Positions 11,784 to 56,626 are shown, counted from the stretch's first letter. The stretch: 64,000 nt of DNA from Candidatus Spechtbacteria bacterium (GCA_016188605.1 JACPHP010000001.1:1327-65326), one strand, 5' to 3'. The notes: generated by a model from the letters alone, not told the origin. Numbers and translations are program-made.

Positions 11784-11787
11784 CATT

Positions 11788-34667: not shown

Positions 34668-36245
34668 TCAGAGGAGGCTTTTTGCATACGCTAATCGAGC
34701 AAGCGTTTTTTCTTTACCCAGAATACTAGCTACTTCAAACGGGCCAGGTGATGCTTTTTGACCAGTTAAGGCAACGCGCAAAGGCCATAATATAGTGCCT
34801 TTATCCCCCTTTGCCGAAGCATAAGGCATTAAAACGTCTTCCAGAGATTTTGCGGTCTGAAATATTTTATTATCTAACGACATGATAAAGTTTTCTAATT
34901 CAGACAGCGTTTTGGTAATAGTTATTTTGTCGGTATTTTTCCAAACAAGCAGGGATTCATCGTAAGAGGGACTATCTGTAAAGAAAAATCCTGCTCTCTC
35001 CCCTATTTCCGCGAGGCGCTTTAACCGTTCTTGCTCCAGAGCAATAATTTTTTTTAGCCATTCAAAATTAACTATCTCGCCGGTTTTAATAATTTTGAAT
35101 TTCAAACCGTCATTTTGCTTGTCTCGCGAAGCATAGGCGGAGTGAGGAGATTTGCGATTTGCGATTTGCGATTCCTCGATGTATCCCGCATAAACCAAAA
35201 ATGGTACACAACGCTGGGTTAATTCGCCTATCTCCATGTTACGTATGTACATGCCATTCATCCAATCCAATTTTTCGAGATTAAAAATAGCTCCGCTCTG
35301 CTGAATATTGTCGCCGTCAAATCGTTCGATAAGCTCCTTCATTGTCATTATTTCTTTATCATCATTGGCGTTCCAGCCAAGGATAGCAAGAAAGTTTATA
35401 AATGCTTCGGGCAGATATCCCATTTTTTCATATTCAAGAACAGAAACCGCGCCGTGGCGCTTGCTAAGCTTTGATCGATCTGTACCGAGTAGCAACGGCA
35501 AGTGAGCGTACTTAGGCGATTGCAATTTAAGCGCGCGTTGGATCAGAATTTGTTTCGGGGTATTTGAGATATGATCTTCGCCGCGAATAACATGCGTAAT
35601 TTCCATGTCGCTGTCGTCAATTACAGCCGCAAAATTATATAACGGCAAATCAAGCGACTTTGCGAGTGAAAAATCTCCCAGCAAATCAGCATTAAATTCT
35701 ATCTCTCCTCGTACATGATCATAAAATTTTACGCTGCCTCCAGGATTCTGAAAACGTATGATAGATTTTTCTTTATTAGTATCAGTAACATCGATTGCAG
35801 CAAATTTGCGATAATCACATATATGCATTGGCGGTTGCTTTTGCGCCTCTTGTTGCGCGCGTTCTTTTTCAAGCTCTGCTTGTGTATGCCAGCAATAAAA
35901 AGCATCGCCTTGTTCTAATAATTGATTTAAATACTGTTTATGAATTTTTAGGCGTTCGCTTTGACGATATGGGCCATGGAGGCCGCCAACATCGGGCCCT
36001 TCGTCCCAATCCATGCCTAGCAATTTAAGCCCCTTGAGGATATTTTCTTCATATTCTTTTTTGGAACGTTCGGTATCAGTATCCTCAATGCGTACTATAA
36101 ATACTCCCCCATGGTGACGAGCAAAAAGGTAGTTAAATAATGCGGTGCGAGCCGTGCCGACGTGCAGCATTCCCGTTGGGCTTGGAGCTATGCGGACGCG
36201 AACGGTTTGGTCAGGGGTTACGAATTGTTCTTTAGTGGTATTCAT
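34668..36245 (-). CDS. gltX: glutamyl-tRNA synthetase
   Basis: HIGH-type motif SPTGMLHVGTAR and KMSKS-type KLSKRHG. Confidence 0.85.
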   Translation of the reverse strand: MNTTKEQFVTPDQTVRVRIAPSPTGMLHVGTARTALFNYLFARHHGGVFIVRIEDTDTERSKKEYEENILKGLKLLGMDWDEGPDVGGLHGPYRQSERLKIHKQYLNQLLEQGDAFYCWHTQAELEKERAQQEAQKQPPMHICDYRKFAAIDVTDTNKEKSIIRFQNPGGSVKFYDHVRGEIEFNADLLGDFSLAKSLDLPLYNFAAVIDDSDMEITHVIRGEDHISNTPKQILIQRALKLQSPKYAHLPLLLGTDRSKLSKRHGAVSVLEYEKMGYLPEAFINFLAILGWNANDDKEIMTMKELIERFDGDNIQQSGAIFNLEKLDWMNGMYIRNMEIGELTQRCVPFLVYAGYIEESQIANRKSPHSAYASRDKQNDGLKFKIIKTGEIVNFEWLKKIIALEQERLKRLAEIGERAGFFFTDSPSYDESLLVWKNTDKITITKTLSELENFIMSLDNKIFQTAKSLEDVLMPYASAKGDKGTILWPLRVALTGQKASPGPFEVASILGKEKTLARLAYAKSLL

Positions 36246-36252: not shown

Positions 36253-36339
36253 ATTAGCGAATAACGAATGGCATAAGAATATACGAATACTCCACTACAG
36301 CCAATTCGTTTATTCGTAAAAAATTCGTTATTCGTTGAT
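36253..36339. mobile_element. MITE family A copy 5
   Basis: attagcgaataacgaat ... attcgttattcgttgat. The right TIR supplies the last codons of murG (...L-I-N-E-stop). Confidence 0.8.
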
Positions 36340-37491
36340 TAAGTCCAATATCATTCCTGCAATCTCATCCGCAGCCCTTGGCCGTGCAAACTCCGCGGCG
36401 CGTTGTGACATAAATCGCCGTTTTTGTTCATCATTAATAACAAAATTAATTGTTTCAAAAAATAAATTGGGTGTAAGGTTTTGCTCCTCAAGCACCGTAC
36501 TGGCGCCAAAATCAGCATAAAGATAAGCATTTTTTTTCTGGTGATCATCCGCCGCGCTTGGCAGTGGAATAAGGATACTTGGTTTTTGTATAGCGGCAAT
36601 TTCAAAAATACTTCCCGACCCCGCCCTGCTTACCACAAGCGAGCATAAAGCGTAGGCGTGCGCGAGGCCTGCTTCATCCATAAATGCATGCGGGTGGTAA
36701 GATGAGTACAATTCTAGCGGAGTCCTTGCAAGCGCAATTTCTTTCACGGCAACAAAATGCTTTTCTCCGATTTGATGTATCACTTCAAAGTTAGCAAGAA
36801 GTTTTGGCAATGATTCCAAAACAAGTTCGTTAATTTTTTGCGCGCCCTGGCTTCCTCCCTGTATTAAAATAATCGGCTTCTGCGAATCTATTTGAAAAAT
36901 TTTCCTCCCCTCATCAGTAGAACCGTTCATAAGATTAGGGCGAATCGGGTTTCCTAGAACCGTGTACAACTCTGGTAGGTGCTCGCGTTTAGCCCCTCGA
37001 ACAAACTCGGGGTAAACAACCGGAAATGAAAGTATAACTTTGTCAGCAAATCGTGCCAGTAAGCGATTTGCGAGCCCCATAACGCTATCTGACTCATGAA
37101 TTACTATCGGTATGCGATAAAGCCAACCAACTAAGACAGGGAAAGCGCTGCCGTAACCTCCTTTTGCGAATATCACATCAGGCATGAGCCAGTATAAATA
37201 CGCGAGAGATTGTATAAGAGTTATGGGCGGCTTTAATATATCTAAAATAGTTGTGAGCGAAAAATATCTGCGCAATTTGCCGGCAACAAGATTCCATACA
37301 GTAATGCCTTCTTGCGCGAATATTTCTTGTGCCATTTTTCCAGGTCCAAGGAATATAACTTCTGGCTCTGCGAATCCCTCTTCTTGCGTGCGAAAAACAA
37401 AACTGCGCGCAACAGCAATAAGCGGAAATAAGTGTCCGCCAGTGCCACCGCCGGTAAGCAGGATATGTAATTTTTCTTTTTCGTTTGACAT
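36328..37491 (-). CDS. murG: undecaprenyldiphospho-muramoylpentapeptide beta-N-acetylglucosaminyltransferase
   Basis: G-loop LLTGGGTGGHLFP and GT28 core. Confidence 0.85.
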   Translation of the reverse strand: MSNEKEKLHILLTGGGTGGHLFPLIAVARSFVFRTQEEGFAEPEVIFLGPGKMAQEIFAQEGITVWNLVAGKLRRYFSLTTILDILKPPITLIQSLAYLYWLMPDVIFAKGGYGSAFPVLVGWLYRIPIVIHESDSVMGLANRLLARFADKVILSFPVVYPEFVRGAKREHLPELYTVLGNPIRPNLMNGSTDEGRKIFQIDSQKPIILIQGGSQGAQKINELVLESLPKLLANFEVIHQIGEKHFVAVKEIALARTPLELYSSYHPHAFMDEAGLAHAYALCSLVVSRAGSGSIFEIAAIQKPSILIPLPSAADDHQKKNAYLYADFGASTVLEEQNLTPNLFFETINFVINDEQKRRFMSQRAAEFARPRAADEIAGMILDLINE

Positions 37492-37588: not shown

Positions 37589-38701
37589 TCAGTTATGCCG
37601 AGAAATCTGAAGTAGTAATCCGGAAGCCGCCAGTGTTGACACCATAGCCGAACCGCCATAACTAATAAATGGCAAAGGTATTCCCATCAAGGGCAAAACG
37701 CCTGTTATAGATCCGATGTTGATAAATGCCTGGATGCCAATCCAGGAAGTGATGCCGAGCGCTAACATGGAAGAAAATCTATCATTTGAGTCTCGCGCGA
37801 TTTTTAGTCCCCGCCAAATAAAAATTAAAAAAAGTAGTATGAGTGAAATAGCGCCAACAAATCCCGTCTCTTCGCTCCACACCGCAAAGATAGAGTCTCC
37901 CATTGGTTCTGGAAGAAAATTATGAGATTGCTGGCCTTGGGCTATTCCAACCCCCCAAAGTCCTCCCGAACCTTCCGCGAGCAACGCTTGATTAAGATGA
38001 TAGCTAATACCCATAGGATCGGTTTGAGGGTTAAGAAACGTAGATATTCTTTCTAGTCTGTACGGCGCAATTTGAATAAGAATAAATAATCCTATAACGC
38101 CCAGGACGCCCAGAAAAGCAAAATGCTGTATTTTTCCCCCAGCTACAATATACATAAATCCCGCGGTAAGACCAATTAAAATTAAAGTGCTAATATCGGG
38201 TTGAAGAAAGAGGAAAAAAGCCAACATGCCAACCAGGATCGTAAAGGGTACTAAACCAGTTCCAATATTTTGCACTTCATTTTTTTTTGATGCAAACCAT
38301 GCGGCAAGATATATTACAAATGTAAGTTTGGTAATTTCCGAGGGTTGCATTAGAAAAGACCCAATATGAATCCATCGCTGCGCGCCACCGGCTGCGTATG
38401 CAAACCCCGGAACAAAAATAAGTATAAGCAGAAATAGCGAGGTTAGATAGAATGGAAGCGCTAAACTATGCAATATTTTGTACGGTAAAAAATAAAATAT
38501 AAACCCGCCAATCAGTCCCAACCCCACTCCGTAAATCAATTGATGTTGCAAATATCCATATATGTTGCCAAAAACATACTGACTTTCGCCTCCTGACGCG
38601 GATGATAAAATAACAAGCCCGACACTAAACAGGGCTGCTATGGACATAAGCAAAATGAAATCTGGTTTTTTGAGCAGCAAATGTTTGTTCATGTGGAACA
38701 A
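37589..38701 (-). CDS. ftsW: SEDS family protein FtsW/RodA (TTG start)
   Basis: 10 TM. Conserved SEDS periplasmic loop (QRWIHIGSFLMQPSEITKL). Confidence 0.8.
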   Translation of the reverse strand: MFHMNKHLLLKKPDFILLMSIAALFSVGLVILSSASGGESQYVFGNIYGYLQHQLIYGVGLGLIGGFIFYFLPYKILHSLALPFYLTSLFLLILIFVPGFAYAAGGAQRWIHIGSFLMQPSEITKLTFVIYLAAWFASKKNEVQNIGTGLVPFTILVGMLAFFLFLQPDISTLILIGLTAGFMYIVAGGKIQHFAFLGVLGVIGLFILIQIAPYRLERISTFLNPQTDPMGISYHLNQALLAEGSGGLWGVGIAQGQQSHNFLPEPMGDSIFAVWSEETGFVGAISLILLFLIFIWRGLKIARDSNDRFSSMLALGITSWIGIQAFINIGSITGVLPLMGIPLPFISYGGSAMVSTLAASGLLLQISRHN

Positions 38702-38781: not shown

Positions 38782-40347
38782 TTATTCTCTTCTTAGTATC
38801 TCTCCCGCTCGATTCGTCGTCGTCTTTCCATCTCGCACCGCTACTTCGCCATTGACGATAACCCAATTTATACCAGATGGGTATTGATAAGGATTTTGAA
38901 AAGTCGCGTTATCTTTTATTTTCTTTGGATTAAATATCACTATGTCAGCATAAGCGCCTTTTTCAATTTTTCCGCGATTCTTTAAACCTATTTTTTGCGC
39001 AGGGCCGTATGTCGCCTTGTAGATGGCTTGTTCCCATGTCAGCAGATTGTTTTCTTGAATATATCGCGAAAAATATCTTGGAAATGCTCCAAATGATCGC
39101 GGATGAACGAGTTTCCCTGACTTGCCGTCAGAATGTAGATATCCGATACCATCGGACGATGTAAAAGAATAAGGATTCTGTACTGCTTGCATAATATTTG
39201 CCTCCGAAAGTGTGGTCGTAAATACTGATACGCGTCCTTCCGACGCCGAAAGCATATTGAGTACCGCATCTTCAATGGAGGTTTCCTGATTTTTGGCAAT
39301 CTCTTTTATGGTTCGGCCAATAAACGTAGGGTCAAGGTTAGCAGATGCGATAACCATTCTATCGTACTGATGCGGATCTTGCCGCATTTCCTGCACAAGG
39401 CGTTTGCGTATCACAGAATCTTGAATACGCTCAAGCATTTTTTTCTTTCCGCCTTCAGCAACCCAATCGGGAAGAAATATATAGAGTACAGATAAAGTCG
39501 TTGTATACGGATAAAGGTCAAAATTTACAAACACTCCCTGCGACCGAGCTTCTGTTATCATATCAATTGCTTTTGAAAAATTTGACCAGAATGTTTCTCC
39601 CATCGCTTTGAAATGGGATATTTCAAGATGTACTGTGTTGCGGCTGGCTGAATCAAGCGCTTCTTCCACCGCCGGAATTAAATGTTCTCCTTCGTCGCGT
39701 AGGTGCGCGCTATAAAGGCCATCATATTTTTTTACCACATCGAGCAACGCGTCAATTTCTGACGCTGACGCAATTTTGGCATGCGAATAAGCAAAACCGG
39801 TTGAAAGACCAAACGCGCCTTCGTTCATAGCATTATCCAGCAGGAATTGCATTTGTTTTATTTCATGACTATTAGCTTCGCGAAAACTATCACCAAGAAT
39901 ACCGCGACGGAGCGTTGAGTGACCAACAAGAGTGCCGACATTGATACGCAGATGATGATGATCTAATTCCGCAAGATACTCACCCATCGACATCCAGTTG
40001 ACATTTAACAGTGACGGATCAGCCCATTTTTGTACCATCATAATAACACCGGGGTTCGTTAACGGCGCGAGTGACGTGCCGCAATTGCCCATCAGGATGG
40101 TTGTTATACCCTGTTGAACAAGACTATTCTGGCCAGCGTTGGAAAATAACGTTAAATAGACGTCGGAATGATTAAGAATATCTACGAATCCGGGGACGAC
40201 GAAATTATTTTGCGCGTTAATGACACGTTCATTGTTATGCTCGTGAAGATTTCCAATTTCATGGATAAGATTTTTCTCAATTCTAATATCAGCTTCGTAT
40301 CGAGGCTGTTGCATGCCATCTATAATTATGCAATTTTTGATGAGCAT
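38782..40347 (-). CDS. amidohydrolase-superfamily protein, N-acyl-D-amino-acid deacylase (D-aminoacylase)-like; occupies the usual murD slot between mraY and ftsW
   Basis: 521 aa. N-terminal VVPGFVDILNHSD metal-binding segment. Overall D-aminoacylase-like architecture. Confidence 0.65.
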   Translation of the reverse strand: MLIKNCIIIDGMQQPRYEADIRIEKNLIHEIGNLHEHNNERVINAQNNFVVPGFVDILNHSDVYLTLFSNAGQNSLVQQGITTILMGNCGTSLAPLTNPGVIMMVQKWADPSLLNVNWMSMGEYLAELDHHHLRINVGTLVGHSTLRRGILGDSFREANSHEIKQMQFLLDNAMNEGAFGLSTGFAYSHAKIASASEIDALLDVVKKYDGLYSAHLRDEGEHLIPAVEEALDSASRNTVHLEISHFKAMGETFWSNFSKAIDMITEARSQGVFVNFDLYPYTTTLSVLYIFLPDWVAEGGKKKMLERIQDSVIRKRLVQEMRQDPHQYDRMVIASANLDPTFIGRTIKEIAKNQETSIEDAVLNMLSASEGRVSVFTTTLSEANIMQAVQNPYSFTSSDGIGYLHSDGKSGKLVHPRSFGAFPRYFSRYIQENNLLTWEQAIYKATYGPAQKIGLKNRGKIEKGAYADIVIFNPKKIKDNATFQNPYQYPSGINWVIVNGEVAVRDGKTTTNRAGEILRRE

Positions 40348-40354
40348 AAATTTA

Positions 40355-40468
40355 ATCTAAAATCTCAAATGGCAAATCTTAAATCTACATCGCAAATCTT
40401 AAAGCTTCAGTCGTAATTTTTAGATTTAAGTTTTAGTTTTGCGATTTGCGATTGGAGTTTTGACATTT
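40355..40468. repeat. palindromic heptamer array (caaatct / agatttg arms)
   Basis: aaaatctcaaatggcaaatcttaaatctacatcgcaaatcttaaag ... tagatttaagttttagttttgcgatttgcgattggagttttgacattt. Confidence 0.7.
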
Positions 40469-40470
40469 AT

Positions 40471-41619
40471 TTAATGGAAGCTAAGCCAAATTGCTGTCAT
40501 TGAAAAAAGCGAAGCTACAGCCCATGCGTACATCACTATAGTCGCCTCGCTCCAACCTGTAATTTCAAGGTGATGATGTAACGGGGCCATTGCAAGCAAT
40601 CTATGTCCGAATAATACACGCCACGCGACTTGAATGAGAACTGATACGATTTCAATAACGAATATTCCTCCTATGATTGGCAAAAGCACTACCCTGTCTA
40701 ACGCAAACGCAATCGCGGTAAGCATTACCCCCATTCCAAGCGATGCCACGTCTCCCATTTGATATCGTGCGGGTTTGATATTAAATAGTAAATAGCCAAG
40801 CAGTGCGCCTATCGTTACCGCAATCAGGAAAATGAAATCTGTGTTTCTATGTTGGAGCGCTACGATAAAAAACGCGCTGTAGGATAGCAGTAATGTCCCA
40901 GCAGATAGCCCGTCAATGCCGTCGGTAATGTTTACAGCATTAGACATAAACATAACCAGGAAAATAATTAAAGGAACAATCATCCAGCCCAGATCATATG
41001 AACCATGCCATGGAATCCAGATTGACGTCCAGCTAAGCTTAAATGAAAGCCACCAGGCAATAATGCATCCTATAATGAATTGTACCAAAATTTTCTCATG
41101 AGCCTGAATGCCACTGCCGGGATGCGATCCCAGAAGATAGAAAAATCTTTTATACGCGTACCACGGCAATAACAGTACATACCATACGCGAGCTAAAATA
41201 TTTTTGTGGACGCGTATAAGCGTCCAAACTTTTCCAAGCGTACGCACGGGGCGGGTTTTTGTATAAAAGATATTCAGCAGGTCGTCCAAACCACCCAAAG
41301 CAGCTGACAACAGTAGCACTCCTATTGGTACATATGTCGTCTCACGATGCCAATTAAACATCGTTGTGAGCACCGCGATAACGCTAACAATTATAATGCC
41401 TCCCATGATTGGTGTACCTATTTTTGCCTCGCGCCCGGCAATTAACGATGAAAAATCGTGTTCATCTCGTCGAGTTATGTGTAATTTTTTAAGAAGCGCG
41501 ATAAGCGGAATTGAGCCTATGACGGTTAAAGCGAATGCCGTGAAAAAAAATGCAAAAATAGAATCCGGAAATGAAGTAAAAATCATACTTACAAGTACAG
41601 CGGACGATATAGACCACAT
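40471..41619 (-). CDS. mraY: phospho-N-acetylmuramoyl-pentapeptide transferase
   Basis: Motifs GTPIMGG and NAVNITDGIDGLSAG. Confidence 0.85.
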   Translation of the reverse strand: MWSISSAVLVSMIFTSFPDSIFAFFFTAFALTVIGSIPLIALLKKLHITRRDEHDFSSLIAGREAKIGTPIMGGIIIVSVIAVLTTMFNWHRETTYVPIGVLLLSAALGGLDDLLNIFYTKTRPVRTLGKVWTLIRVHKNILARVWYVLLLPWYAYKRFFYLLGSHPGSGIQAHEKILVQFIIGCIIAWWLSFKLSWTSIWIPWHGSYDLGWMIVPLIIFLVMFMSNAVNITDGIDGLSAGTLLLSYSAFFIVALQHRNTDFIFLIAVTIGALLGYLLFNIKPARYQMGDVASLGMGVMLTAIAFALDRVVLLPIIGGIFVIEIVSVLIQVAWRVLFGHRLLAMAPLHHHLEITGWSEATIVMYAWAVASLFSMTAIWLSFH

Positions 41620-42359
41620 GCTACCTCCTGGCCCGATATAAACCCGCGTTGCTGGTTAATTGTGCGTGATGTGTTGGGCCACTCTTCCCAATGCTGTTCA
41701 ACCAAAGGCAACGATTCATTCGTGATAGTTATTTTTCCTTCTTTTATTCCCTCGCCAGTTTCTTCACGTACCGATTGAGCGTATTCCACGGAAATCAACT
41801 TATCGTTATTATCTCGTTCAGTTTTTATAACAAGTATGGCATGGTCAACTTCAGCGACAAATCTAATCAAGTCGCCGGGCTGCAATTCTTGCCAATTCTT
41901 TAATTCCCTAGCATTTTGTAGATCGGTAAGCGTTGCAACACCGATGTGCGTGAATGGGCGTAAATAAATTGCGATTTTTGCAAATAAGCCAGACTGCGGG
42001 AATTGCAAAACTTCATATACGCGCTTGCTCTTACTTTGACGCGTCCAAGCATCAAATATATGGGCGATAAAACCGGAGCATTCCACGCCGAGCCGCCTCT
42101 TTCTCATTATATCACGAACTTCATCTTCTTCCATTGAGGAAAAGTTTTTATGCTCAAGGCGCTCAATTATTTTGAGTTCGTCTTCAATCTCTTGAGGAGA
42201 CCCTTTGCCGGAAAAAGCGTTCAAGCCCCAGCGCTCCTTACCACTGCGAGGATTGCGATAATAAGGGCAACGGACTGCCCTGTTGTCACCTATGTTGAGA
42301 TGTTTATAGCGCTCTATAACGTCTAGAGCTGGTTGAGGGATACTTACAATTGTATTCAT
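41589..42359 (-). CDS. hypothetical protein, possible Cys/His hydrolase (ECSGFIAHIF ... EVDHAILV)
   Basis: 256 aa. Candidate catalytic Cys and His in a papain-like spacing. Family not confidently assigned. Confidence 0.45.
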   Translation of the reverse strand: MNTIVSIPQPALDVIERYKHLNIGDNRAVRCPYYRNPRSGKERWGLNAFSGKGSPQEIEDELKIIERLEHKNFSSMEEDEVRDIMRKRRLGVECSGFIAHIFDAWTRQSKSKRVYEVLQFPQSGLFAKIAIYLRPFTHIGVATLTDLQNARELKNWQELQPGDLIRFVAEVDHAILVIKTERDNNDKLISVEYAQSVREETGEGIKEGKITITNESLPLVEQHWEEWPNTSRTINQQRGFISGQEVACGLYRPLYL

Positions 42360-42368
42360 ATGTTTACT

Positions 42369-42455
42369 ATCAACGAATAACGAATCCTTTACGAATAAAC
42401 GAATTGGCTGTAGCGGAGTATTCGTATATTCGTACGCTATTCGTTATTCGTTGAT
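42369..42455. mobile_element. MITE family A copy 8
   Basis: atcaacgaataacgaat ... attcgttattcgttgat. The right TIR supplies ...I-I-N-E-stop of the ATP-grasp gene. Confidence 0.8.
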
Positions 42456-43673
42456 GATATATTCTTGCACCCTATATAGCTCCTCATTCACCCCTACCAC
42501 TTTCATACGCGAAGTAACAATTCCTTCACCTAAGGGCAGCTGAATTTCCGAAACCAGCACTTCATTCTGTAGTTTATTGCGATACAGCACTTGCCGTACC
42601 TTACCACGCAAGACAAGCGGCGGTAAGTCCCCGTTCGACAAGCTCAGGGCAAGCTCCTTTTTCGGCTCGAATCCTGGCTCCAGCATGTCGTTAATAAACA
42701 ATAGAATTAGAGGGGTTTTATTTATGGCTCGATGCAGTTTTGCTTCAAATGAAATGCTAGCTGGCTGATGCGTGTTTACTTCAATAAAGTATACTTTACC
42801 AGTGCTTTTTTCTGCCACAGCGTCAATGCCAAAAAGGCCATTGTAGCCCTTAGCATGCATCGCGGTTCCTACGTTTCTCGCCATCACGCCGATAGCTTCT
42901 ATTTGACTTTGCGAAAGTTCTTCGGACACGATGCCGAAATCGTTTCCCACGGTTGATGACGGATTGTTTGTTGCTTCAGGTAGTCCGGTAAGCTGTTTGC
43001 TGATAGAGCCCGTATAGACCGTGCCATTTTTTGCTGCAAACGCATTAAGAGTGTAAGTATTTCCCGTGATGAATTGCGCGATCCTTACTTCCCTATTCGG
43101 GAATTTTTCCGCGTGCGGAGTAAGATCTTCGATTGACTGCAAAATAAACGTCCCTCCTCCGCTGTGGCCGATATTATACTGGGCAACTAACGGTAACGGC
43201 ATTTTTGCAATAACTTTGGTTGCTTGCGACAATGTTGTAATAATAGTTGGCGGAAACTCAATGCTATCTTTAAGATGTTGATATTGGGTTATTTTATCTT
43301 CAAAAAGAGTTGCTAAATCCGCGCGCGGCGCCATAAGTTGCCAGCTGTTCTTTTGGCATTCTTGCTCGATAGGCTCGGAGGTTTTTAGTACAAGAATGTT
43401 TGATTGCTGTCCGGCCGACAAATCATCAATATATTTTATAACGCAGGTTAACTTCGCCACGCCATAAGTGCCAGCGCGCAGATTATCTTCCCAATTTTTG
43501 TCAACACAATCGCGTTCCAGAATAAACATTTTTGTGCCCCTTGCCTCCAAGTCATCTGTAAAAGCGCTTTTATATGGACAAATAATAGCGTAGTTAGCCA
43601 AATCATCCTCAACGCCGGTTGCGCGTTCAGGGTCAAGGGCGAGATAGAAAATTTTGTTATTCCCTATTGACAT
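42444..43673 (-). CDS. ATP-grasp domain protein (peptide/amino-acid ligase-like)
   Basis: ATP-grasp C-terminal motifs GLFGIDAV and YFIEVNTHQPASISFEA. Start taken at Met29 (43673), because the first 28 track codons lie in a tataat-rich spacer. Confidence 0.65.
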   Translation of the reverse strand: MSIGNNKIFYLALDPERATGVEDDLANYAIICPYKSAFTDDLEARGTKMFILERDCVDKNWEDNLRAGTYGVAKLTCVIKYIDDLSAGQQSNILVLKTSEPIEQECQKNSWQLMAPRADLATLFEDKITQYQHLKDSIEFPPTIITTLSQATKVIAKMPLPLVAQYNIGHSGGGTFILQSIEDLTPHAEKFPNREVRIAQFITGNTYTLNAFAAKNGTVYTGSISKQLTGLPEATNNPSSTVGNDFGIVSEELSQSQIEAIGVMARNVGTAMHAKGYNGLFGIDAVAEKSTGKVYFIEVNTHQPASISFEAKLHRAINKTPLILLFINDMLEPGFEPKKELALSLSNGDLPPLVLRGKVRQVLYRNKLQNEVLVSEIQLPLGEGIVTSRMKVVGVNEELYRVQEYIINE

Positions 43674-43746
43674 ATAATTATAATATATGGTATATAAAAA
43701 AAATAATCGGGAGTATCGCAATATATTCCTTAAAGGAGGAATAAGA

Positions 43747-43941
43747 GTGGTTGACATCGGTGAAGTAATCTATCTTGCTATTGCGGTATTTATTGGTTGT
43801 GCGTTCGGAAACTTTGTGGAAAGCTCTTCTAGAACGGGAAGCTCTTCTAGAAGTCGTGCGTTCGAGCGCAGTCTCTTTCAATTTGTAGCATTATTTTGTT
43901 TTGTCTTGTCCATCGTACTTGTCTACCTCATCCGTGTATAA
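43747..43941 (+). CDS. small two-TM protein (GTG start, strong SD AAGGAGG) containing a tandem 17-bp repeat
   Basis: aaaggaggaataagaGTG. Encodes VVDIGEVIYLAIAVFIGCAFGNFVESSSRTGSSSRSRAFERSLFQFVALFCFVLSIVLVYLIRV. Tandem agctcttctagaa x2 inside. Confidence 0.4.
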   Translation: MVDIGEVIYLAIAVFIGCAFGNFVESSSRTGSSSRSRAFERSLFQFVALFCFVLSIVLVYLIRV

Positions 43942-44793
43942 TAAATCCGTCATTAGACACACCGACTGCCCAGCTTCACCAAGAGGCTGGGCTTTTTCTT
44001 TCCATTTTAGAAATCCCGCGAATGCCAAAACGCTTTGCCAACCTGGCTTAAACTCACAGCCCTCAAAGTACTTCGCGGCATTTTCCAGTTCTTGATTGAA
44101 AATAACATAGCCATTGCCACCGGTTGCGCGGACAATATTCGCAACTGTTTTTTTGCGAGGTGCTACGCGGTCTACGATTGCCGTGGCCAAACTTTCTTTT
44201 TCTTCTATAAAATCTTTGCTAAATTCTTGCGCTATCGTGTGCACCTTGCTTGTTTGTACTATATGAAGTTCCGGAACCTCACATCCAAGGACTTTATATC
44301 CATTGTATATTCCCTGCAAGGTTGCGCCTGAGCTAGTAGGTATAAAAATGCGTTTCGTATCGGGCAACTGATCGCGTAGCTCAAACGAGATTGTTTTATA
44401 TCCCTCAATCCCCTCCTCATGCTTTGACGCGAGCAGATTAGGAATATTGTTCTTTTGGCTGAATTGTACGGATTCCTTGCGCGGAAGCGCGCTCTGGTAT
44501 ATCTGGATGTTGTCAAAAGATTGAAGGCGTGCTAGTTTTTCTTTGGCAAGCTTGGTGCTAATAAAAACATGCAGGCGGATATTTGCTAGCTTGCAATATG
44601 CCGCCGCGGAAATAGCGGAATTTCCGGACGAGGCAATAGCGAGCTCTTTTACGCCATTCATACGACAAAGCGAAATCCAATACGCGAAAGATCGATCTTT
44701 GTGCGTACCAGTGGGGTTGCGAAATTCAAGTTTTCCCCACACCGAAATATCCCCAATTGACTGCGTTTTTTGCAGACTATATACTGGGGTCAT
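43891..44793 (-). CDS. threonine synthase-like PLP-dependent enzyme (fold type II)
   Basis: GEGMTPVYSL...GKLEFRNPTGTHKDRS...ASSGNSAISAAAYC aligns with the ThrC N-terminus and PLP-Lys motif. Start taken at the internal Met (44793) so the gene does not overlap the divergent Zn-ribbon gene. Confidence 0.65.
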   Translation of the reverse strand: MTPVYSLQKTQSIGDISVWGKLEFRNPTGTHKDRSFAYWISLCRMNGVKELAIASSGNSAISAAAYCKLANIRLHVFISTKLAKEKLARLQSFDNIQIYQSALPRKESVQFSQKNNIPNLLASKHEEGIEGYKTISFELRDQLPDTKRIFIPTSSGATLQGIYNGYKVLGCEVPELHIVQTSKVHTIAQEFSKDFIEEKESLATAIVDRVAPRKKTVANIVRATGGNGYVIFNQELENAAKYFEGCEFKPGWQSVLAFAGFLKWKEKAQPLGEAGQSVCLMTDLLYTDEVDKYDGQDKTK

Positions 44794-44868
44794 TCCCTCT
44801 CCCAAGGAGGATTTACAACCATCCGGGATGGGCGGAGAAAACAAATCATTAAAGTCCCAAAATATCAT

Positions 44869-45031
44869 GAAAGTAAAATGCCAAGAATGTAAAAATGAAA
44901 AAGCGTTAGACGACTTTGACGCGCAAGCAGGCAACTGGTTTGAGTGCGACTATTGTGGCACTACCTACGAGATTGTCGATATTGACGAAGACGGTGAGCC
45001 GCAGCTGCAAATGATTGAGGAGGAAAAATAA
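44869..45031 (+). CDS. LysW-like zinc-ribbon protein (54 aa, CxxC-x17-CxxC followed by acidic tail)
   Basis: MKVKCQECKNEKALDDFDAQAGNWFECDYCGTTYEIVDIDEDGEPQLQMIEEEK. Has the G-x-x-Y-E-[IV]-V motif after the second CxxC, like amino-group carrier protein LysW, but the C-terminus is EEEK rather than EDWGE. Confidence 0.5.
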
Positions 45032-45099
45032 GTATCTAGTCTTACCGGGGCATCTCAATATGAGGTGCCTTTTGTTTTATAATCAGGTGTTATCTGGTT

Positions 45100-45295
45100 T
45101 CAAAATTTTCAATGGTTATGTTTTCAGCCATAGCAAGAAATACAAAAAAATGTATTTCTACGTTTAACAAAAATTACAACAAAATGTAATTTTACGCTAA
45201 GGCTGATCCCCGCCAGAGGCGGGCAGGCGTCTCAGGCGGAGAAAATTTAGTAATTGTAAATTTATTGAAAATTGTTAAATTGAAAATTGATCATT
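45100..45295. repeat. spacer filled with heptamer repeats (ttgaaaattg units) and a long-variant REP-like element
   Basis: ttcaaaattttcaatgg...gtaattgtaaatttattgaaaattgttaaattgaaaattgatcat. The same ttgaaaattg motif follows R8 at 27400..27455. Confidence 0.6.
45196..45246 (+). mobile_element. REP-like element long variant copy R9
   Basis: gctaaggctgatccccgccagaggcgggcaggcgtctcaggcggagaaaattt, the reverse complement of the 21367 copy. Confidence 0.65.
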
Positions 45296-46630
45296 TTTCT
45301 GTTTTATAGTTCTTATTGTCTCCTCTATCATCCCCCTAAACCCTTTTTGGCTCATGAAAACAACACAGCCAAAGATATCCCGTTTCCTCCAACCAACTAC
45401 AATTTTTTTAATTTGCGAAATTACCTCCTCGTCTTCCGTTATAAATTGTACGCGCTTGTAATCTTTTTGAATTTTCCGCGCAAGCTTTTTATTAAACTCT
45501 TGTGATTCAGCCGAAGTGCCGCTCAAGCGAGGCAGTAAGACATAATCCGCCTTCGCAAAACATTTGTGGTATTCTTTTTGCTTCAGCGCCAAATCGCTTC
45601 TATTTCCCGGTTCGTATATTGCGATTATAGATTTGCAAGGAAATTGCGCGCGGATTGCTTCAAGCGCCCCCTCAACTTTTTCCGGAGAATGGGCGTTGTC
45701 GTCTATCACTACTATGTTTTTGTCCTGGTAGCGCACTTCCTGGCGGCGTTTAATGCCCTTAAAAGTTCGCAGCGCTCTCTTTATTTGTTTATCTTCTATT
45801 CCTATCTGTTTGGCTAGCGCCACGACCGAACCAATATTCTCTTTCCATGCCGCGCCCAAAAAGGGAGGGGTAAAGCCTTCGGCGCTATTTTCATCGTACC
45901 AGCAAATTTGTGCTTTTGCACCATTTAGAACCTCTTGGGCATTCTCTCCCCTTCTATTGGCAATAATCACGCCATTTTTAGGCATTTTTAGGGCAAGCTT
46001 ATGGAATGTATTTATATAAGAACTCTTGGTCGGAAACATATCCATGTGGTCCCAGGTGGCACCCGTGAGAATAAGATATTTGGGGTGATAAGCCAAAAAT
46101 CGCGATGTTTTCTTCCAATTTGCGATGGGATATTCATCACCCTCAAGAACCGACCACTTGCTATCCGTGCTGCGGATGCCGTCGGTGAAGTTTTTGGCAA
46201 TGCCGCCTATCATAAAACTGGGATTGAATTTGGCGACTTCGAGCAGCCACGCAACGAGTGACGTTACAGAAGTTTTGCCGCACGATCCTGCCACAACAAT
46301 AGAATTTTCTTTTTCTATTAGTTCTGGTAAAACTTCGCCATATGTCTTGTAGGGAATCTTATTTTTTATAGCATAGGCAAGTTCGGGATTCTTTTTGCTA
46401 ATGAACGCCATAACTAGCACAAGATCGGGCCTTTGGCTAAGATGTTTTTCTTTGTAGCCAGGCATAATTGCAATGCCATTTTTCTTCAAATAGGTACTCA
46501 TGGGCGGGAAAAACGCGCGATCGGAACCAGTCACTTTCCAGCCAAGTTTTTTATACAAAACAGCCAGAGGTGCCATTGTCACCCCAGAAATGCCTATAAA
46601 ATGAATGTGTTTTTGAGTTTCTTTGGTCAT
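45275..46630 (-). CDS. Mur ligase of the MurC/Mpl subfamily (UDP-MurNAc--L-Ala ligase or UDP-MurNAc:tripeptide ligase)
   Basis: IHFIGISGVTMAPLAV...VTGSDRAFFPPMSTYLKKNGIAIMPGY...VAGSCGKTS...LEGDEY...TWDHMDMF. The GSD-x-x-x-PPMST and EGDEY...DH motifs resemble Mpl more than canonical MurC. Confidence 0.75.
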   Translation of the reverse strand: MTKETQKHIHFIGISGVTMAPLAVLYKKLGWKVTGSDRAFFPPMSTYLKKNGIAIMPGYKEKHLSQRPDLVLVMAFISKKNPELAYAIKNKIPYKTYGEVLPELIEKENSIVVAGSCGKTSVTSLVAWLLEVAKFNPSFMIGGIAKNFTDGIRSTDSKWSVLEGDEYPIANWKKTSRFLAYHPKYLILTGATWDHMDMFPTKSSYINTFHKLALKMPKNGVIIANRRGENAQEVLNGAKAQICWYDENSAEGFTPPFLGAAWKENIGSVVALAKQIGIEDKQIKRALRTFKGIKRRQEVRYQDKNIVVIDDNAHSPEKVEGALEAIRAQFPCKSIIAIYEPGNRSDLALKQKEYHKCFAKADYVLLPRLSGTSAESQEFNKKLARKIQKDYKRVQFITEDEEVISQIKKIVVGWRKRDIFGCVVFMSQKGFRGMIEETIRTIKQKNDQFSI

Positions 46631-46676
46631 CTTTATCGGGTAGTCTATAGAAGCACGGCTTCTATACTCGCGCTTA

Positions 46677-47810
46677 TCATATAATTTTCGCTAATACTTT
46701 CTCCGCGTAATCTTTATCGCGTACCACATCCCCTACAGGCAGACCAGTTTCATTCTCCGCTTCTTGTGTCGCGCGTCGCGTGTCTTCTTCAGACATGCCG
46801 GATGTATTCAAAGCCACCGCTGCAACTTTTGTGTCGCGGTATGTCGGTAAAATACTAGATTCGTAGTGCTTAATCGCTTCTTTCAGCGAAGGAAGAGCCA
46901 CAAGCTTGGAGCCAATGGAGTGTTTTCGCGCGGGCCTGTGGACTAACACCATATGCGTTGGCACCGCGCCGTGAATTAGGGAGATGCAGGTATTCGAGAA
47001 TGCGGGATGAAATAAACTCCCCTGCCCTTCCACAAAAAAAATATCGTAATCATTTTGTTTTTCAATCAGCATTTTCTCCACCGCGCCAGCCATAAAATCC
47101 GCTGGCAGGGCGTCTATGGAAATCCCCCAGCCCTCAATCATAATGCTCGTTTGTCCCGTAGGGATTACGCAGGCACGCATGCCCCGCTTTTGCGCAGCTC
47201 GCGCGAGTTCATAGCTTGTTGTCATCTTTCCAATAGCGGCATCGGTACCTACCGTTAAAACTATAGGTTTTGTAATGTGATAAGATTGCGAGGAACACAC
47301 GGGAATACTTTGCAAATCAACATCAGAGCGCACGTCCCAAATTATTGAGCCACTGGTTTTAGCGGCCTCGCTAAACTGCGCATTATTTTTTAGCGGATAA
47401 TGCATTCCCGAAACTACATGCATGCCTTGTTGCAAAGCCGTTAGAATATCATTTTCCCACTCGCGTGGCAACCCTCCGCCCTCTGGGGCGGCGCCTAGTA
47501 AAAGAACAGATGCTTTGGTAATATCACGCGCTTCAGCGAGCGACGAAAAAATTGGCGTATCGACATTTTTTGAATCATCGAGATATCCGCCAAGCACATC
47601 ATATACTCTTATGTGGGGTATCCGATACCCCACATAAGATGTGGAGTCCACGATGCCCGCTATCGGATATTCCGCGTATCGCAAAATCCCATCCGCGGTT
47701 TTTGCCCGCATGGGGAATTTTTTGCGTGCATTAAGGCCAAAAACCCCCTCGGCGTAGATGAGAGATACGTGCTCTGCTAGGTTAATCGGCGCATTTATTG
47801 GGCTAGCCAT
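46677..47810 (-). CDS. DUF1611-family P-loop protein (same family as MurL, the UDP-MurNAc-L-Ala-L-Glu epimerase described in Xanthomonas)
   Basis: N-terminal LIYAEGVFG...AKTADGILRY...GIVDS and P-loop TVGTDAAIGKMTT match the DUF1611 pattern from memory. Confidence 0.55.
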   Translation of the reverse strand: MASPINAPINLAEHVSLIYAEGVFGLNARKKFPMRAKTADGILRYAEYPIAGIVDSTSYVGYRIPHIRVYDVLGGYLDDSKNVDTPIFSSLAEARDITKASVLLLGAAPEGGGLPREWENDILTALQQGMHVVSGMHYPLKNNAQFSEAAKTSGSIIWDVRSDVDLQSIPVCSSQSYHITKPIVLTVGTDAAIGKMTTSYELARAAQKRGMRACVIPTGQTSIMIEGWGISIDALPADFMAGAVEKMLIEKQNDYDIFFVEGQGSLFHPAFSNTCISLIHGAVPTHMVLVHRPARKHSIGSKLVALPSLKEAIKHYESSILPTYRDTKVAAVALNTSGMSEEDTRRATQEAENETGLPVGDVVRDKDYAEKVLAKII

Positions 47811-52920: not shown

Positions 52921-53955
52921 TTACTTTATTGTCTGATTGCTATTATCAAGATAAACGATATACCTGCCTGATTTTAAATCTTGTTTTGTAGTAATTTTTC
53001 GAACTGCATAAGCTACTGCCGATCCCGCGATTGTCGCGGTGGTTCCAAGCTGAGGCACTGCCGCAATCGTTTTGCCGATTTCAGAAAGAGACTCCCGCAT
53101 TCTTTGCGTGAGGTTAGCGGGATCAACTATTCTTGTCGCAACCTTTACCCATTCAGAATACGCCAGTCCAGCTATCTTGTCGGGATCAACTCCTTCAACC
53201 AGACCGTGTAGAATAGGTCTTTCTGGTTCTTCATCAAATCTCTCAACATCAAGTATAACATTATCTCCGTTATCTGTAGCCATAACCACCGGAATGCGAT
53301 GTTCGCGGCACACTATGCGTGAAAGAAGCTTTAATTCCAAGCTATCCATTTCATCAATGAAAACGTCTAATTTTGGCTCAAGAATAAATTTTTCAAGCGT
53401 TTGGCGATTTACACCATCAGTCCATAAATCCAATTCTGAAAAAGGGTCTAGCTCCCAAACCTGTTGTGCCGCAAAGTCAGTTTTATTCATTCCTATGGCA
53501 AATACTGGCGCGCGAAGGCGGTTGAGATTAGTAATCTCAATGACATCATAGTCGGCTATTTTTAAATTTTTCGGACCACCGCTGAAAACCAGCGCGTTTA
53601 TTACATTAGAACCAACGGAAAGACCTATAATTCCTACTCTCGCCGCTCTATATGTTTCCTGTTCTTCCTTGGTAATAATATTTTTGTTGCGCGCAGTGCG
53701 CAACTCAAGATAAATCTCCTCGCTAGGCACGCGCGCCACGATATTTCGCCAAGGATAATATACATACACTGCGGGCAAACCTTCGTTATTTTTGATAAAA
53801 ATATCGCACTTTTCCGCCCTCTCTGTTGGCGGAGCGGATTTTAGCGCGGGGTTGCGGATAACGCAGAGTTCTTTCAGCGCTGTGGGGATTGTGTCAACAA
53901 AAATCGCGCCGGCGGGTAACAATTGTTTATCTTTTTCTATACGAATTGATTGCAT
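52921..53955 (-). CDS. ThiF/MoeB/E1-like adenylyltransferase-fold protein with about 110-aa N-terminal extension
   Basis: Rossmann GIIGLSVGSNVINALVFSGGPKNLKIADYDVIEITNLNR, typical of the E1-like superfamily. Confidence 0.65.
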   Translation of the reverse strand: MQSIRIEKDKQLLPAGAIFVDTIPTALKELCVIRNPALKSAPPTERAEKCDIFIKNNEGLPAVYVYYPWRNIVARVPSEEIYLELRTARNKNIITKEEQETYRAARVGIIGLSVGSNVINALVFSGGPKNLKIADYDVIEITNLNRLRAPVFAIGMNKTDFAAQQVWELDPFSELDLWTDGVNRQTLEKFILEPKLDVFIDEMDSLELKLLSRIVCREHRIPVVMATDNGDNVILDVERFDEEPERPILHGLVEGVDPDKIAGLAYSEWVKVATRIVDPANLTQRMRESLSEIGKTIAAVPQLGTTATIAGSAVAYAVRKITTKQDLKSGRYIVYLDNSNQTIK

Positions 53956-53966
53956 AGATATGCATA

Positions 53967-55532: not shown

Positions 55533-55576
55533 ATTTTTATACGTGACGCAAACTTCAATAATATCTCATGAATATC

Positions 55577-56626
55577 TCATGTTAGCACTTCTTCAACTCC
55601 TCTTCGCGGGCTATGTGGCGCAACTTTTGTAGGATATCCTAGTCCAAAAAACATTTGCGGAGAGAGGGTCTGGTTAGTTTTTTCAAAAATAAAAGTCGAG
55701 AGTTTTTTTCTGGACTCGCCACTTTCAATTGCAGCAACCATAATGGACGCGGCCATGCCTTTGCTTTGTAATGTCAGAAGTACGCTTTCAAGAAGCTCTC
55801 CGGTATGCAGCCACGCCGCCGCATTATCATCTTTGGTGCTTATTATACCAACAGCTCCGAAATTTAGCACGCGCTTAATCGCTTTTTTCTCCTCTACTGG
55901 CGATACATCTATTAAGCGTAACGCCCAAGGTGCCGCAAGTGATTTAAGCATAGACATTTCGTGTCCAGATCCCGGCATGCCATCTCGGCTCATCGTCCAA
56001 TTATTGCGAATCCATGTCGCAAGTTCTTTGCGGAAATCAAGCTGCGACATTTTTTCTTTCATGCCTTCCCCCGCTATCGAAGCCAATAGTTTTTTATCGG
56101 TGAAATTATTGGTAATAGTTAGATTGATGCCGCTTTCGCTAACTAGATTCTGAAGATCATCAATAATTTCCGCTGGCACTTCTTTGTTCTGATACTCTGC
56201 TCTGTATGAAACGCGCTGCGTAATTGCTGAAAATAAGGCATCATCATGGCTAACAAGGCCTTTATCGTCGCATGTTAGCGTTACGGCGTGCTCGGCGTTA
56301 GCGTTTGAAAGCTGTTCGTTATAATGAACAGCGCATTCAAAACCGTAATGTTTTGCCGCAATAATCATATTTTCTGCGGCGCAACCAAGGGCGATATAAG
56401 TCATGCGGCCTGTCGGATCGCCAAATTGCGGGCGGCGTGAAAAATCAGCAATTATTTCAATGCTGTTATTATCTACATGAAATTTCCATGGTTGTGTGTT
56501 GTGGCTGGATGGCGCGAGGATGCCAAAACAAACTAAAAATTTTAGTTTGTCGGTTTTGGTGGGCTGGTCATAGAAACCCCTTGGGTCTATACTCCACGCT
56601 TCGTAGTTTGATGGTTTACGGCACAT
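55577..56626 (-). CDS. nitroreductase-family flavoprotein (two-lobed, about 350 aa; SagB/Acg-like size class)
   Basis: SSHNTQPWKF motif and a second degenerate lobe. Confidence 0.65.
   Translation of the reverse strand: MCRKPSNYEAWSIDPRGFYDQPTKTDKLKFLVCFGILAPSSHNTQPWKFHVDNNSIEIIADFSRRPQFGDPTGRMTYIALGCAAENMIIAAKHYGFECAVHYNEQLSNANAEHAVTLTCDDKGLVSHDDALFSAITQRVSYRAEYQNKEVPAEIIDDLQNLVSESGINLTITNNFTDKKLLASIAGEGMKEKMSQLDFRKELATWIRNNWTMSRDGMPGSGHEMSMLKSLAAPWALRLIDVSPVEEKKAIKRVLNFGAVGIISTKDDNAAAWLHTGELLESVLLTLQSKGMAASIMVAAIESGESRKKLSTFIFEKTNQTLSPQMFFGLGYPTKVAPHSPRRGVEEVLT

Follow-up and report, generated by a model that had tools for sequence, protein, structure and literature searches.

The locus described here raises the question of how the first part of the peptidoglycan stem peptide is built when a cell-wall gene cluster is accompanied by neither murD nor murE. 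It occupies positions 38782-47810 of a 64,000-nucleotide stretch of DNA (hereafter, the window, to which all coordinates refer unless a locus number is given) from Candidatus Spechtbacteria, a lineage of the Patescibacteria, or candidate phyla radiation (CPR). The window also encodes the CPR-typical DUF5671. Few bacterial pathways are as conserved as the steps catalyzed by MurC through MurF, which are also major targets of antibiotics. An earlier note on this DNA had described the cluster as non-canonical, and this description holds well beyond one genome, because over 40 loci of other CPR genomes and metagenomes carry the set in synteny, at 30-65% amino-acid identity. The cluster forms the core of an operon for peptidoglycan precursors that is specific to Patescibacteria. 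It encodes a UDP-N-acetylmuramate (UDP-MurNAc) ligase of the Mpl type, and we tentatively favor the reading that some of the stem peptide is first produced or salvaged away from the nucleotide, to be joined by this ligase afterwards.

A conserved gene module

All gene calls in the cluster were reproduced when rechecked by Pfam, NCBIfam or PDB searches, and the genes named in the earlier note lie in the order and on the strands that it gave. Related loci, cited below by L numbers, came from three sets. Homologs of the DUF1611 protein, of an ATP-grasp ligase and of a 256-amino-acid (aa) protein were looked up; GTDB genomes were scanned with a DUF1611 alignment; and JGI metagenomes were scanned with an alignment of the 256-aa family. 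The loci were annotated by BLAST and hidden Markov models (HMMs) against the window proteins.

Three arrangements recur. Arrangement A, present in the window, Spechtbacteria and Wildermuthbacteria, consists of genes for the DUF1611 protein, the Mpl-type ligase, a LysW-like zinc ribbon (on the opposite strand), a pyridoxal phosphate (PLP) enzyme of the PALP family, the ATP-grasp ligase, the 256-aa protein, MraY, in some loci an amidohydrolase, FtsW and MurG. Arrangement B runs from the ATP-grasp ligase through the 256-aa protein, MraY, the DUF1611 protein, the ligase and the LysW-like protein to the PALP enzyme, in some loci with MurB and MurA before the latter. Arrangement C begins with MurB on the opposite strand, followed by the ATP-grasp ligase, the 256-aa protein, MraY, a protein resembling ATE_C (the C-terminal domain of arginyl-tRNA-protein transferase), the ligase, the LysW-like protein and the PALP enzyme. 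The constant core is therefore the ATP-grasp ligase with the 256-aa protein, MraY, the ligase, the LysW-like protein and the PALP enzyme. The module is closely tied to mraY and frequently to murA and murB. Recurrence on this scale, and in three arrangements, indicates that the gene association is not due to chance. A search of the literature found no description of the module.

An Mpl-type ligase

The ligase gene (45275-46630, minus strand) encodes the N, M and C domains of the Pfam Mur_ligase families, and its N domain is of the MurC/Mpl type (PF01225). Mpl enzymes are distinguished from Mur ligases by Tyr182 followed by a (S/T)AFFDKRSK loop, by a GI(C/G)GTFM loop, and by residues of the C-terminal domain that include SNG (Das et al. 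2011, PMC3060825). The Mpl of the same report, PaMpl, accepts di- to pentapeptides (PMC3060825).

In an alignment with Escherichia coli Mpl and MurC, the window ligase and all of its CPR and Armatimonadota orthologs carry the Mpl insertion, DEY-xxAxW-xxS(K/R)F. At this site, the window protein reads DEYPIANWKKTSRF, Mpl reads DEYDCAFFDKRSKF, and MurC reads DESD-------ASF, with a gap of seven residues. The window, CPR and Armatimonadota ligases also have FFPPMS where Mpl has VYPPMS, and a C-terminal MSQKGFRG where Mpl has MSNGGFGG and MurC has VQGAGNI. The CPR ortholog in L165 contains SAFFDKKSKF and GICGTAM. The HRxxR motif, with which MurC binds L-Ala, is not kept in the ligase: HRFTR aligns with GN-RSD, and DDYGHH with DDNAHS. 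BLAST scores the ligase at 189 bits against E. coli Mpl (30.5% identity) versus 134 bits against MurC (25.9%), and the two best matches in PDB are the Mpl structures 3HN7 and 3EAG. The enzyme had been placed in the earlier note between Mpl and MurC. Judged by its signature motifs, BLAST preference and top PDB matches, it is Mpl-type and not an ordinary MurC; that it uses peptides is a prediction.

The curated NCBIfam models all score the ligase below cut-off. The murC model (TIGR01082) gives 253.1 bits against a cut-off of 335.1, and so does not place the enzyme firmly in MurC; the mpl model (TIGR01081) gives 237.8 against 388.7; and the murD model (TIGR01087) gives 94.9 against 212. Eight orthologs behave alike, with 201-274 bits on the mpl model. 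These values can be set against E. coli proteins of known identity: the murC model gives 273 for true Mpl, and the mpl model gives 182 for MurC. By these scores, the CPR ligases are neither MurC nor Mpl equivalogs.

The ligase shares with the Mpl of Gram-negative recycling not only family and signatures but also the UDP-MurNAc-binding N domain, the P-loop and the catalytic residues, and the logic of joining a ready-made peptide to UDP-MurNAc would be the same. However, the CPR ligase is apparently the sole enzyme of the MurC family, and resides within a core operon with mraY, murA and murB rather than beside a separate murC. Its score does not reach the curated cut-off for Mpl, and the two differ in the residues of the peptide site.

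The ligases of arrangement A lack a segment of ~40 residues in the central domain (alignment columns ~290-350) that is found in E. coli Mpl, in MurC and in the other CPR orthologs.

Other Mur ligases and assembly of the stem peptide

Searches of the window by tblastn with E. coli MurC, MurD, MurE, MurF, Mpl, Ddl and MurI, and with MurD-, MurE- and MurF-like proteins of CPR bacteria, found only two Mur-ligase genes, that of the Mpl-type ligase and a MurF-like gene at 60442-62073 (minus strand), which lies outside the cluster and belongs to the same pathway. No MurD, MurE, Ddl, MurI, MurA or MurB was found by tblastn in the 64 kb. Thus, the absence of murD and murE that was noted earlier is confirmed at that scope, and the gene at 60442 that had been called murF is indeed MurF-like (TIGR01143), although it lacks UDP-binding domain 1. 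None of about 21 loci that bear DUF1611, each up to 21 kb long, has a gene for a MurD- or MurE-like ligase whose N domain is complete, and Ddl, Alr and MurI were not seen in any locus examined.

The MurF-like protein scores 237.7 bits on TIGR01143 (cut-off 288.6), and the match is aligned to residues 176-492 only. In place of UDP-binding domain 1 is a hydrophobic N terminus of ~170 aa with four to five predicted helices (hydrophobic 19-mers at residues ~1-27, 51-90 and 112-160). This N terminus suggests a membrane-anchored ligase, which may act on a substrate that is lipid-linked or not linked to UDP. Mur-family ligases that lack domain 1, such as FolC, MurT, CapB and cyanophycin synthetase, use substrates that are not UDP-linked. 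MurE- and MurF-like ligases without the UDP-binding domain also occur in L091, L105 and L165, where they are paired with paralogs of the NlpC/P60 family to which the 256-aa protein belongs by fold; in L105 and L165, the domain-1-less MurE-like genes lie near the module. In a CPR lineage represented by L091, L092 and L126 (contigs of 754-858 kb), an NlpC/P60-like paralog precedes each domain-1-less Mur ligase (locus coordinates 8084-12008). The gene order is ftsI, 256-aa protein, paralog 1, MurE-like (404 aa), paralog 2, MurF-like (412 aa), MraY, FtsW and MurG, and this division and cell wall (dcw) cluster has no murD between mraY and ftsW.

Since the ligase is Mpl-type and the cluster is conserved, peptide preassembly followed by Mpl-type ligation is still the most economical reading of the locus. 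This much of a route sketched in the earlier note stands; the epimerization by a MurL-type DUF1611 protein that the note had added to it is not supported, for reasons given below. Away from UDP-MurNAc, partner proteins of the module would synthesize the N-terminal, D-glutamate (D-Glu)-containing portion of the stem, or would salvage and edit it. The preassembled part might be L-Ala-D-Glu or L-Ala-gamma-D-Glu-Lys. The Mpl-type ligase would then cover the work of both MurC and MurD, and MurI would possibly be unnecessary. The peptide would be completed by ligases that lack the UDP-binding domain, namely the MurF-like protein in the window and the MurE- and MurF-like proteins in relatives.

Several points weigh against this tentative reading. 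A divergent MurD-like gene, with a PF21799 N domain, directly follows the PLP-enzyme gene in L141 (15019-16353, minus strand) and L149 (15333-16604, minus strand). The encoded proteins are 21-25% identical to E. coli MurD, and both loci are of the ATE_C-like kind, without DUF1611. Because the MurD-like gene adjoins the module there, at least these lineages probably proceed via UDP-MurNAc-L-Ala, and the Mpl-type enzyme would serve there as MurC. A nearby MurD-like gene is thus found in 2 of about 17 ATE_C-type loci versus none of about 21 DUF1611 loci, numbers that are too small for significance. Moreover, the murC model scores slightly above the mpl model for all CPR ligases, with both below their cut-offs, and the Mpl signature loop is a family marker rather than a proven determinant of specificity. 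Two roles considered below are also soft: that of the PLP enzyme as an epimerase is an assumption, and loading of the LysW-like protein by the ATP-grasp ligase, which is not LysX-like, is a conjecture.

The MurD-like genes of L141 and L149 and the slight preference for the murC model would fit an ordinary pathway, in which the Mpl-type enzyme is simply the L-Ala-adding MurC of this lineage, the genes for MurD and MurE lie elsewhere, and the extra genes either supply D-amino acids, for example through a PLP enzyme that works as a racemase and an ATP-grasp ligase that stands in for Ddl, or have roles outside stem-peptide assembly. The MurE-like and MurF-like genes near the module in L105 are consistent with this explanation. 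With Ddl, Alr and MurI unseen in the loci, substitutes are needed somewhere, and the ATP-grasp gene adjoins murB, as ddl often does. However, the ligase has motifs specific to Mpl and lacks the L-Ala-binding motif of MurC. An ordinary pathway also leaves unexplained the NlpC/P60 fusion, the carrier, the alternation of DUF1611 with ATE_C-like proteins, and the MurE and MurF proteins without domain 1. We therefore regard it as a serious competitor, albeit a somewhat unlikely one. If this deflationary explanation is right, annotation is corrected nonetheless: the "MurC" of the lineage is Mpl-type, and the DUF1611 protein should not be named MurL.

The ATP-grasp ligase and its NlpC/P60 partner

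The ATP-grasp gene (42444-43673, minus strand) encodes 409 aa from the NCBI start, and its open reading frame (ORF) reaches 43757. The protein has the three-domain ATP-grasp fold. A structural comparison scored PurK, PurD and biotin carboxylase at 23-25, the gamma-glutamyl ligase BesA at 23.1, the Streptomyces peptide ligase and PGM1 at 22.8, L-amino-acid ligase at 22.5, Ddl at 17-18.5, and LysX, ArgX and RimK at 15.7-16.7. The enzyme is structurally nearest to amino-acid and peptide ligases, including BesA, and is not of the RimK/LysX class. All 39 homologs with E ≤ 0.001 are from CPR bacteria, and a sequence search of PDB gave nothing significant. A simple replacement of MurE by the ATP-grasp ligase was considered and rejected, because a MurE-like gene coexists with it in L105.

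The adjacent gene (41589-42359, minus strand) encodes the 256-aa protein, which has no Pfam match and for which PDB sequence searches, including one with a profile, gave nothing. The earlier note had described it as resembling a Cys/His hydrolase. The Cys/His pair is real and can now be assigned to an NlpC/P60 papain-like fold, with an invariant Cys94 (within LGVECSG) and His173; the hydrolase activity, as a cysteine peptidase of the gamma-D-Glu-X type, stays a prediction. A family-specific N-terminal extension of ~90 residues carries CPYY..N and GKGS motifs.

In L115-L118, L122 and L125, the ATP-grasp ligase and the NlpC/P60 protein are fused in a single ORF of 666-699 aa (for example, L115 567-2651), with the 256-aa domain at the C terminus of the ATP-grasp ligase; elsewhere, the two genes overlap or abut. 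This fusion suggests that the two proteins act together. The 256-aa protein begins with MNTIVSIPQPALDVIERYKHL, in which no hydrophobic signal segment is seen. Because it lacks such a segment and is fused to a cytoplasmic ATP-grasp ligase in L115, the NlpC/P60 protein is predicted to be cytoplasmic and not a secreted hydrolase.

A pairing of an ATP-grasp ligase with a papain-like amidase is also known from glutathionylspermidine synthetase/amidase and from the cycle of tubulin tyrosine ligase and vasohibin. However, these pairs have no sequence relation to the CPR proteins beyond the fold, and their substrates are unrelated, so the analogy is architectural only.

The 256-aa protein has distant homologs in unrelated settings too, such as beside a Fic protein. 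A NUDIX domain is fused to the ATP-grasp ligase in L161 (8249-9982), and a separate NUDIX gene lies between the ligase gene and the LysW-like gene in L111 (16479-17036) and L115 (8900-9460). These associations hint at a nucleotide-linked intermediate. In L165, an ATP-grasp gene of the RimK/LysX type (1630-2472, minus strand; 280 aa) adjoins mraZ in a CPR dcw cluster. A DUF1611 protein and the Mpl-type ligase are encoded in this cluster, and within 10 kb there is no gene for a LysW-like protein, a PALP enzyme or a large ATP-grasp ligase.

The amidohydrolase and a possible salvage pathway

Between mraY and ftsW lies a gene (38782-40347, minus strand) for an amidohydrolase of the D-aminoacylase/N-acyl-D-glutamate deacylase family (Amidohydro_3). 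It matches D-aminoacylase 1M7J with E = 8e-66 and N-acyl-D-Glu deacylase 3GIP with E = 1.5e-60, and scores 162.6 bits on NF006560 (cut-off 340). Residues equivalent to Cys96, His220, His250 and Asp366 are present (in GNCG, SAHLRDEG, ISHF and SSDG), and Leu replaces His67. From these residues, the enzyme is probably active, and it plausibly acts on N-acyl-D-Glu compounds as an accessory outside the core.

The position of this gene had led to the proposal that it functionally replaces murD. That proposal fails, because in L010 and L013, which otherwise have the same gene order, mraY is directly followed by ftsW. The amidohydrolase is confined to Spechtbacteria-like loci (the window, L001-3, L096 and L098-100), and is thus a lineage-specific insertion rather than a replacement for MurD.

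Hydrolases of these kinds would suit a salvage pathway. CPR bacteria have reduced biosynthesis, and an episymbiont might import peptidoglycan peptides of its host, edit them by means of the NlpC/P60 protein, the amidohydrolase, the DUF1611 protein and, in relatives, an M16 peptidase, re-ligate a diamino acid by means of the ATP-grasp ligase, and attach the product by means of the Mpl-type ligase, as in recycling by E. coli. Mpl, NlpC/P60 DL-endopeptidases and N-acyl-D-Glu deacylases are known from the recycling of peptidoglycan peptides or from catabolism of D-Glu, and Mpl and YkfC are established recycling enzymes. Outside the CPR, DUF1611 adjoins enolases of the dipeptide-epimerase type and a peptide-binding protein, and in two loci of arrangement B, the gene directly upstream of the Mpl-type ligase encodes a peptidase of the M16 family (L163 11631-12899 and L164 13166-14434). 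However, the module shows no peptide transporter, salvage would leave the LysW-like carrier and the PLP enzyme without an obvious role, and neither the amidohydrolase nor the M16 peptidase is conserved. The module also sits with murA, murB and mraY as a main route does, a position that fits de novo synthesis too. Taken as a whole, such a salvage pathway is a serious alternative but seems unlikely.

A putative LysW-like carrier and a PLP enzyme

The LysW-like gene (44867-45031, plus strand) encodes a 54-aa zinc ribbon with two CxxC pairs. All 12 sequences compared, those of the window and 11 orthologs, have PF21344 as their best-matching family (best E = 7.8e-11), which agrees with the original identification of the protein; the window copy itself scores 26.4 bits against a cut-off of 27. 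The protein is a putative carrier. Its tail, I(E/D)E(E/G)K, is invariant in the 12 sequences. A HMMER scan of 1.84 billion representative proteins yielded 22 LysW-like matches, and the 19 small ones that were read all end in E-x-K, none in Glu. Canonical LysW ends in EDWGE, and its cargo sits on the terminal Glu. The invariant E-x-K tail thus marks a separate LysW-like subfamily, in which cargo is presumably attached by a different chemistry. The LysW-like gene and the ligase gene converge in all three arrangements. No LysW-like copy was found in the non-CPR dcw loci.

As in the LysW/LysX/LysK systems of Thermus and archaea, a small, acidic zinc ribbon from this Pfam family is encoded together with two enzymes capable in principle of its loading and unloading, an ATP-grasp ligase and a hydrolase. 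The differences are that the tail is E-x-K and not EDWGE, that the ATP-grasp ligase is not of the RimK/LysX class, that the hydrolase is an NlpC/P60 cysteine peptidase and not an M20 metallopeptidase, and that kinase and reductase steps are missing.

The LysW-like gene and the PLP-enzyme gene (43891-44868, minus strand) are divergent, and their likely start codons overlap by 2 nucleotides at 44867/44868, as they also do in L001. The promoter of each gene must therefore fall within the coding sequence of the other. The ORF of the PLP enzyme extends to 44934, and the start at 44868 was placed by reference to orthologs.

The PLP enzyme is of fold type II and resembles threonine synthase, ThrC (PF00291, 130 bits). 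It retains the ThrC-type PLP lysine motif THKDR (corresponding to K61 of 1UIM) and the SSGNS loop. In the alignment, N154 and R160 of Thermus thermophilus ThrC, which we take to be phosphate ligands, are replaced by Ala and Gly, respectively. The threonine synthase models of NCBIfam score far below their cut-offs (at best 118.6 versus 358; TIGR00260, 55.8 versus 167). With these phosphate-site residues gone and the models so far from their cut-offs, an assignment as threonine synthase is not tenable; by sequence, the protein is a ThrC-like enzyme with another substrate.

LysW carrier pathways make lysine, ornithine and non-proteinogenic amino acids, and the ThrC-like enzyme has an altered substrate site. 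The LysW-like protein, the ATP-grasp ligase, the PLP enzyme and the NlpC/P60 protein might therefore make an unusual amino acid or diamino acid for position 3 or for a cross-bridge, as a substrate for MurE-like or FemAB-like enzymes (the window contains a FemAB gene), in which case the Mpl-type ligase and the DUF1611 protein would be unrelated to them. However, it is to the Mpl-type ligase gene that the carrier gene is most constantly tied, being convergent with it in every arrangement. In addition, no LysW-type kinase, reductase or aminotransferase is present, and the carrier terminates in Lys, not Glu. This explanation, although a serious alternative, is improbable.

DUF1611 and the slot beside the ligase

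The DUF1611 gene (46677-47810, minus strand) was correctly assigned in the earlier note: the encoded protein passes the Pfam thresholds for DUF1611_N (PF17396; 85.3 bits, cut-off 22.6) and DUF1611 (PF07755; 216.4 bits, cut-off 25), and its relatives in PDB are 2OBN (E = 2e-61), 7XRJ and 2G0T. It consists of a Rossmann-like N domain and a BioD-like P-loop domain (P-loop GTDAAIGKMT), with weak matches to AAA_26 and BioD in Pfam and NCBIfam. The closest named NCBIfam model is that of DgcN, a D-Glu N-acetyltransferase (NF041892). Because the score, 222 bits, is below the cut-off of 480, the window protein is a paralog of DgcN. In a neighbor-joining tree, its clade is separate from that of haloarchaeal DgcN.

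Elsewhere, close relatives of the protein adjoin genes for racemases or epimerases of the enolase superfamily (L029 and L039) and for a peptide-binding protein (L087), or belong to haloarchaeal DgcN-type loci. The DgcN-DgcA system of D-Glu catabolism involves the same protein family, and L029 and L039 keep the pairing of DUF1611 with an enolase. In contrast, the window protein is a paralog without an enolase partner, since no MR_MLE gene (the enolase-type DgcA partner) is found in the window, and it is encoded within a cell-wall synthesis operon.

The link between DUF1611 and peptidoglycan is not confined to the CPR. In L021, from an Armatimonadota metagenome-assembled genome (JAAZEB010000245.1, 287-18051), the gene order of an otherwise complete dcw cluster is ftsI-murE-murF-mraY-ftsW-murG-Mpl-like-DUF1611-ddl-ftsQ-ftsA-ftsZ. 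There is no murD, nor room for it between mraY and ftsW, and the Mpl-like and DUF1611 genes occupy the usual place of murC and murB. Another non-CPR dcw cluster, L020, has the order mraY-ftsW-...-murG-DUF1611-murE. In the neighbor-joining tree, the dcw-linked DUF1611 proteins of non-CPR bacteria are not sister to the CPR clade. The L021 cluster also contains two tandem ftsZ genes. Replacement of MurB by DUF1611 was considered as well and is excluded by L004, where murB adjoins the module.

In arrangement C, the position that DUF1611 holds in arrangement B is taken by the ATE_C-like protein of 210-245 aa, whose match to ATE_C is borderline (21-28 bits, cut-off 25). Among loci that span this slot, 21 have DUF1611 without the ATE_C-like protein and 17 have the ATE_C-like protein without DUF1611, and the two never occur together; L161 also has the ATE_C-like protein and no DUF1611. 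This alternation looks like non-orthologous displacement. DgcN acylates free D-Glu, and Bpt and ATE1 acylate the alpha-amine of an N-terminal Asp or Glu. Because both kinds of enzyme thus acylate the alpha-amine of Glu or Asp, by analogy the slot beside the ligase points to an N-acyl (aminoacyl) transfer step.

The earlier note had instead taken DUF1611 to be the family of MurL. MurL catalyzes an ATP-dependent L-to-D epimerization with release of AMP, and its partner, MurD2, is a MurD-type L-Glu ligase; its discoverers described it as lacking known conserved or cofactor-binding domains. This pair is the sole alternative to the early MurC-MurF steps described in the literature that we surveyed (reviewed in PMC8788868). 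In Pfam, the window protein has matches to PF07755 and PF17396 and a weak one to AAA_26, and no others; its named relative is DgcN. MurL (XOO_1319) was compared by description only, and a literature search found no paper that links it to DUF1611. The identification of DUF1611 as MurL is therefore not supported. Even as an analogy, an epimerase role for DUF1611 is highly improbable: the protein has a P-loop and is tied to dcw genes not only in the CPR but also in two lineages outside it, with no murD nearby, and carboxyl activation of N-acyl-Glu could in principle promote epimerization, but no homology emerged from the Pfam matches, MurL forms AMP and has no known domains, the partner ligase is of the MurC/Mpl type and not the MurD2 type, the sole named member of the family is an N-acetyltransferase, and replacement by an aminoacyl-tRNA-transferase-like protein indicates acyl transfer rather than epimerization.

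A possible carrier route

If peptide preassembly followed by Mpl-type ligation is taken as the framework, each of the remaining families can be given its usual chemistry. Gene identities, folds, motifs, synteny, fusion and mutual exclusivity are observed, and from these we infer all substrates and the order of steps. The ATP-grasp ligase would link the gamma-carboxyl of Glu to the terminal Lys of the carrier. The PLP enzyme would invert the free alpha-center of the tethered Glu. The DUF1611 protein, or the aminoacyl-tRNA-transferase-like protein in other loci, would add L-Ala to the Glu amine, and the NlpC/P60 enzyme would cleave the gamma-D-Glu-Lys bond. The Mpl-type ligase would then couple the product to UDP-MurNAc. 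In a large CPR clade, such a route on a Lys-ending LysW-like carrier would replace MurC, MurD and MurI, and later residues would be added by Mur ligases without a nucleotide-binding domain. In this specific form, the proposal is distinctly unlikely.

The module resembles MurD2/MurL in that a ligase and a protein of unknown function form a two-gene unit in a peptidoglycan context where the usual D-Glu step is seemingly missing, and an ATP-driven, one-directional supply of D-Glu is a plausible common purpose. However, the window ligase is of the MurC/Mpl type and not the MurD type, none of the matches links DUF1611 to MurL, and the CPR module adds a carrier, an ATP-grasp ligase, an NlpC/P60 protein and a PLP enzyme. 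If the proposal is true, the module would be a second and quite different variant, with an Mpl-type ligase, a carrier, an ATP-grasp and NlpC/P60 pair, a PLP enzyme, and an interchangeable N-acyltransferase. It would explain how genome-reduced episymbionts obtain wall peptides that contain D-Glu. It would also provide the first functions for dcw-linked DUF1611 paralogs, for the Lys-ending LysW-like subfamily, for intracellular NlpC/P60 proteins, and for Mur ligases without domain 1.

Neighboring genes

The remaining genes of the cluster and its flank are all on the minus strand. The mraY gene (40471-41619), for phospho-MurNAc-pentapeptide transferase, matches PF00953 and scores 172.6 bits on TIGR00445 (cut-off 192). 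It is followed, after the amidohydrolase gene, by ftsW (37589-38701; PF01098, 317 bits), murG (36328-37491; PF03033 and PF04101) and gltX (34668-36245).

Another group of genes resides at 52921-56626 (minus strand) and encodes, in a row, a ThiF-family E1-like protein, a PaaK-like adenylating enzyme of 521 aa and a nitroreductase-like protein. The trio adjoins genes for an aminotransferase, a FemAB-family transferase and a DegT aminotransferase, and may be a separate cluster for modification or for synthesis of a small molecule.

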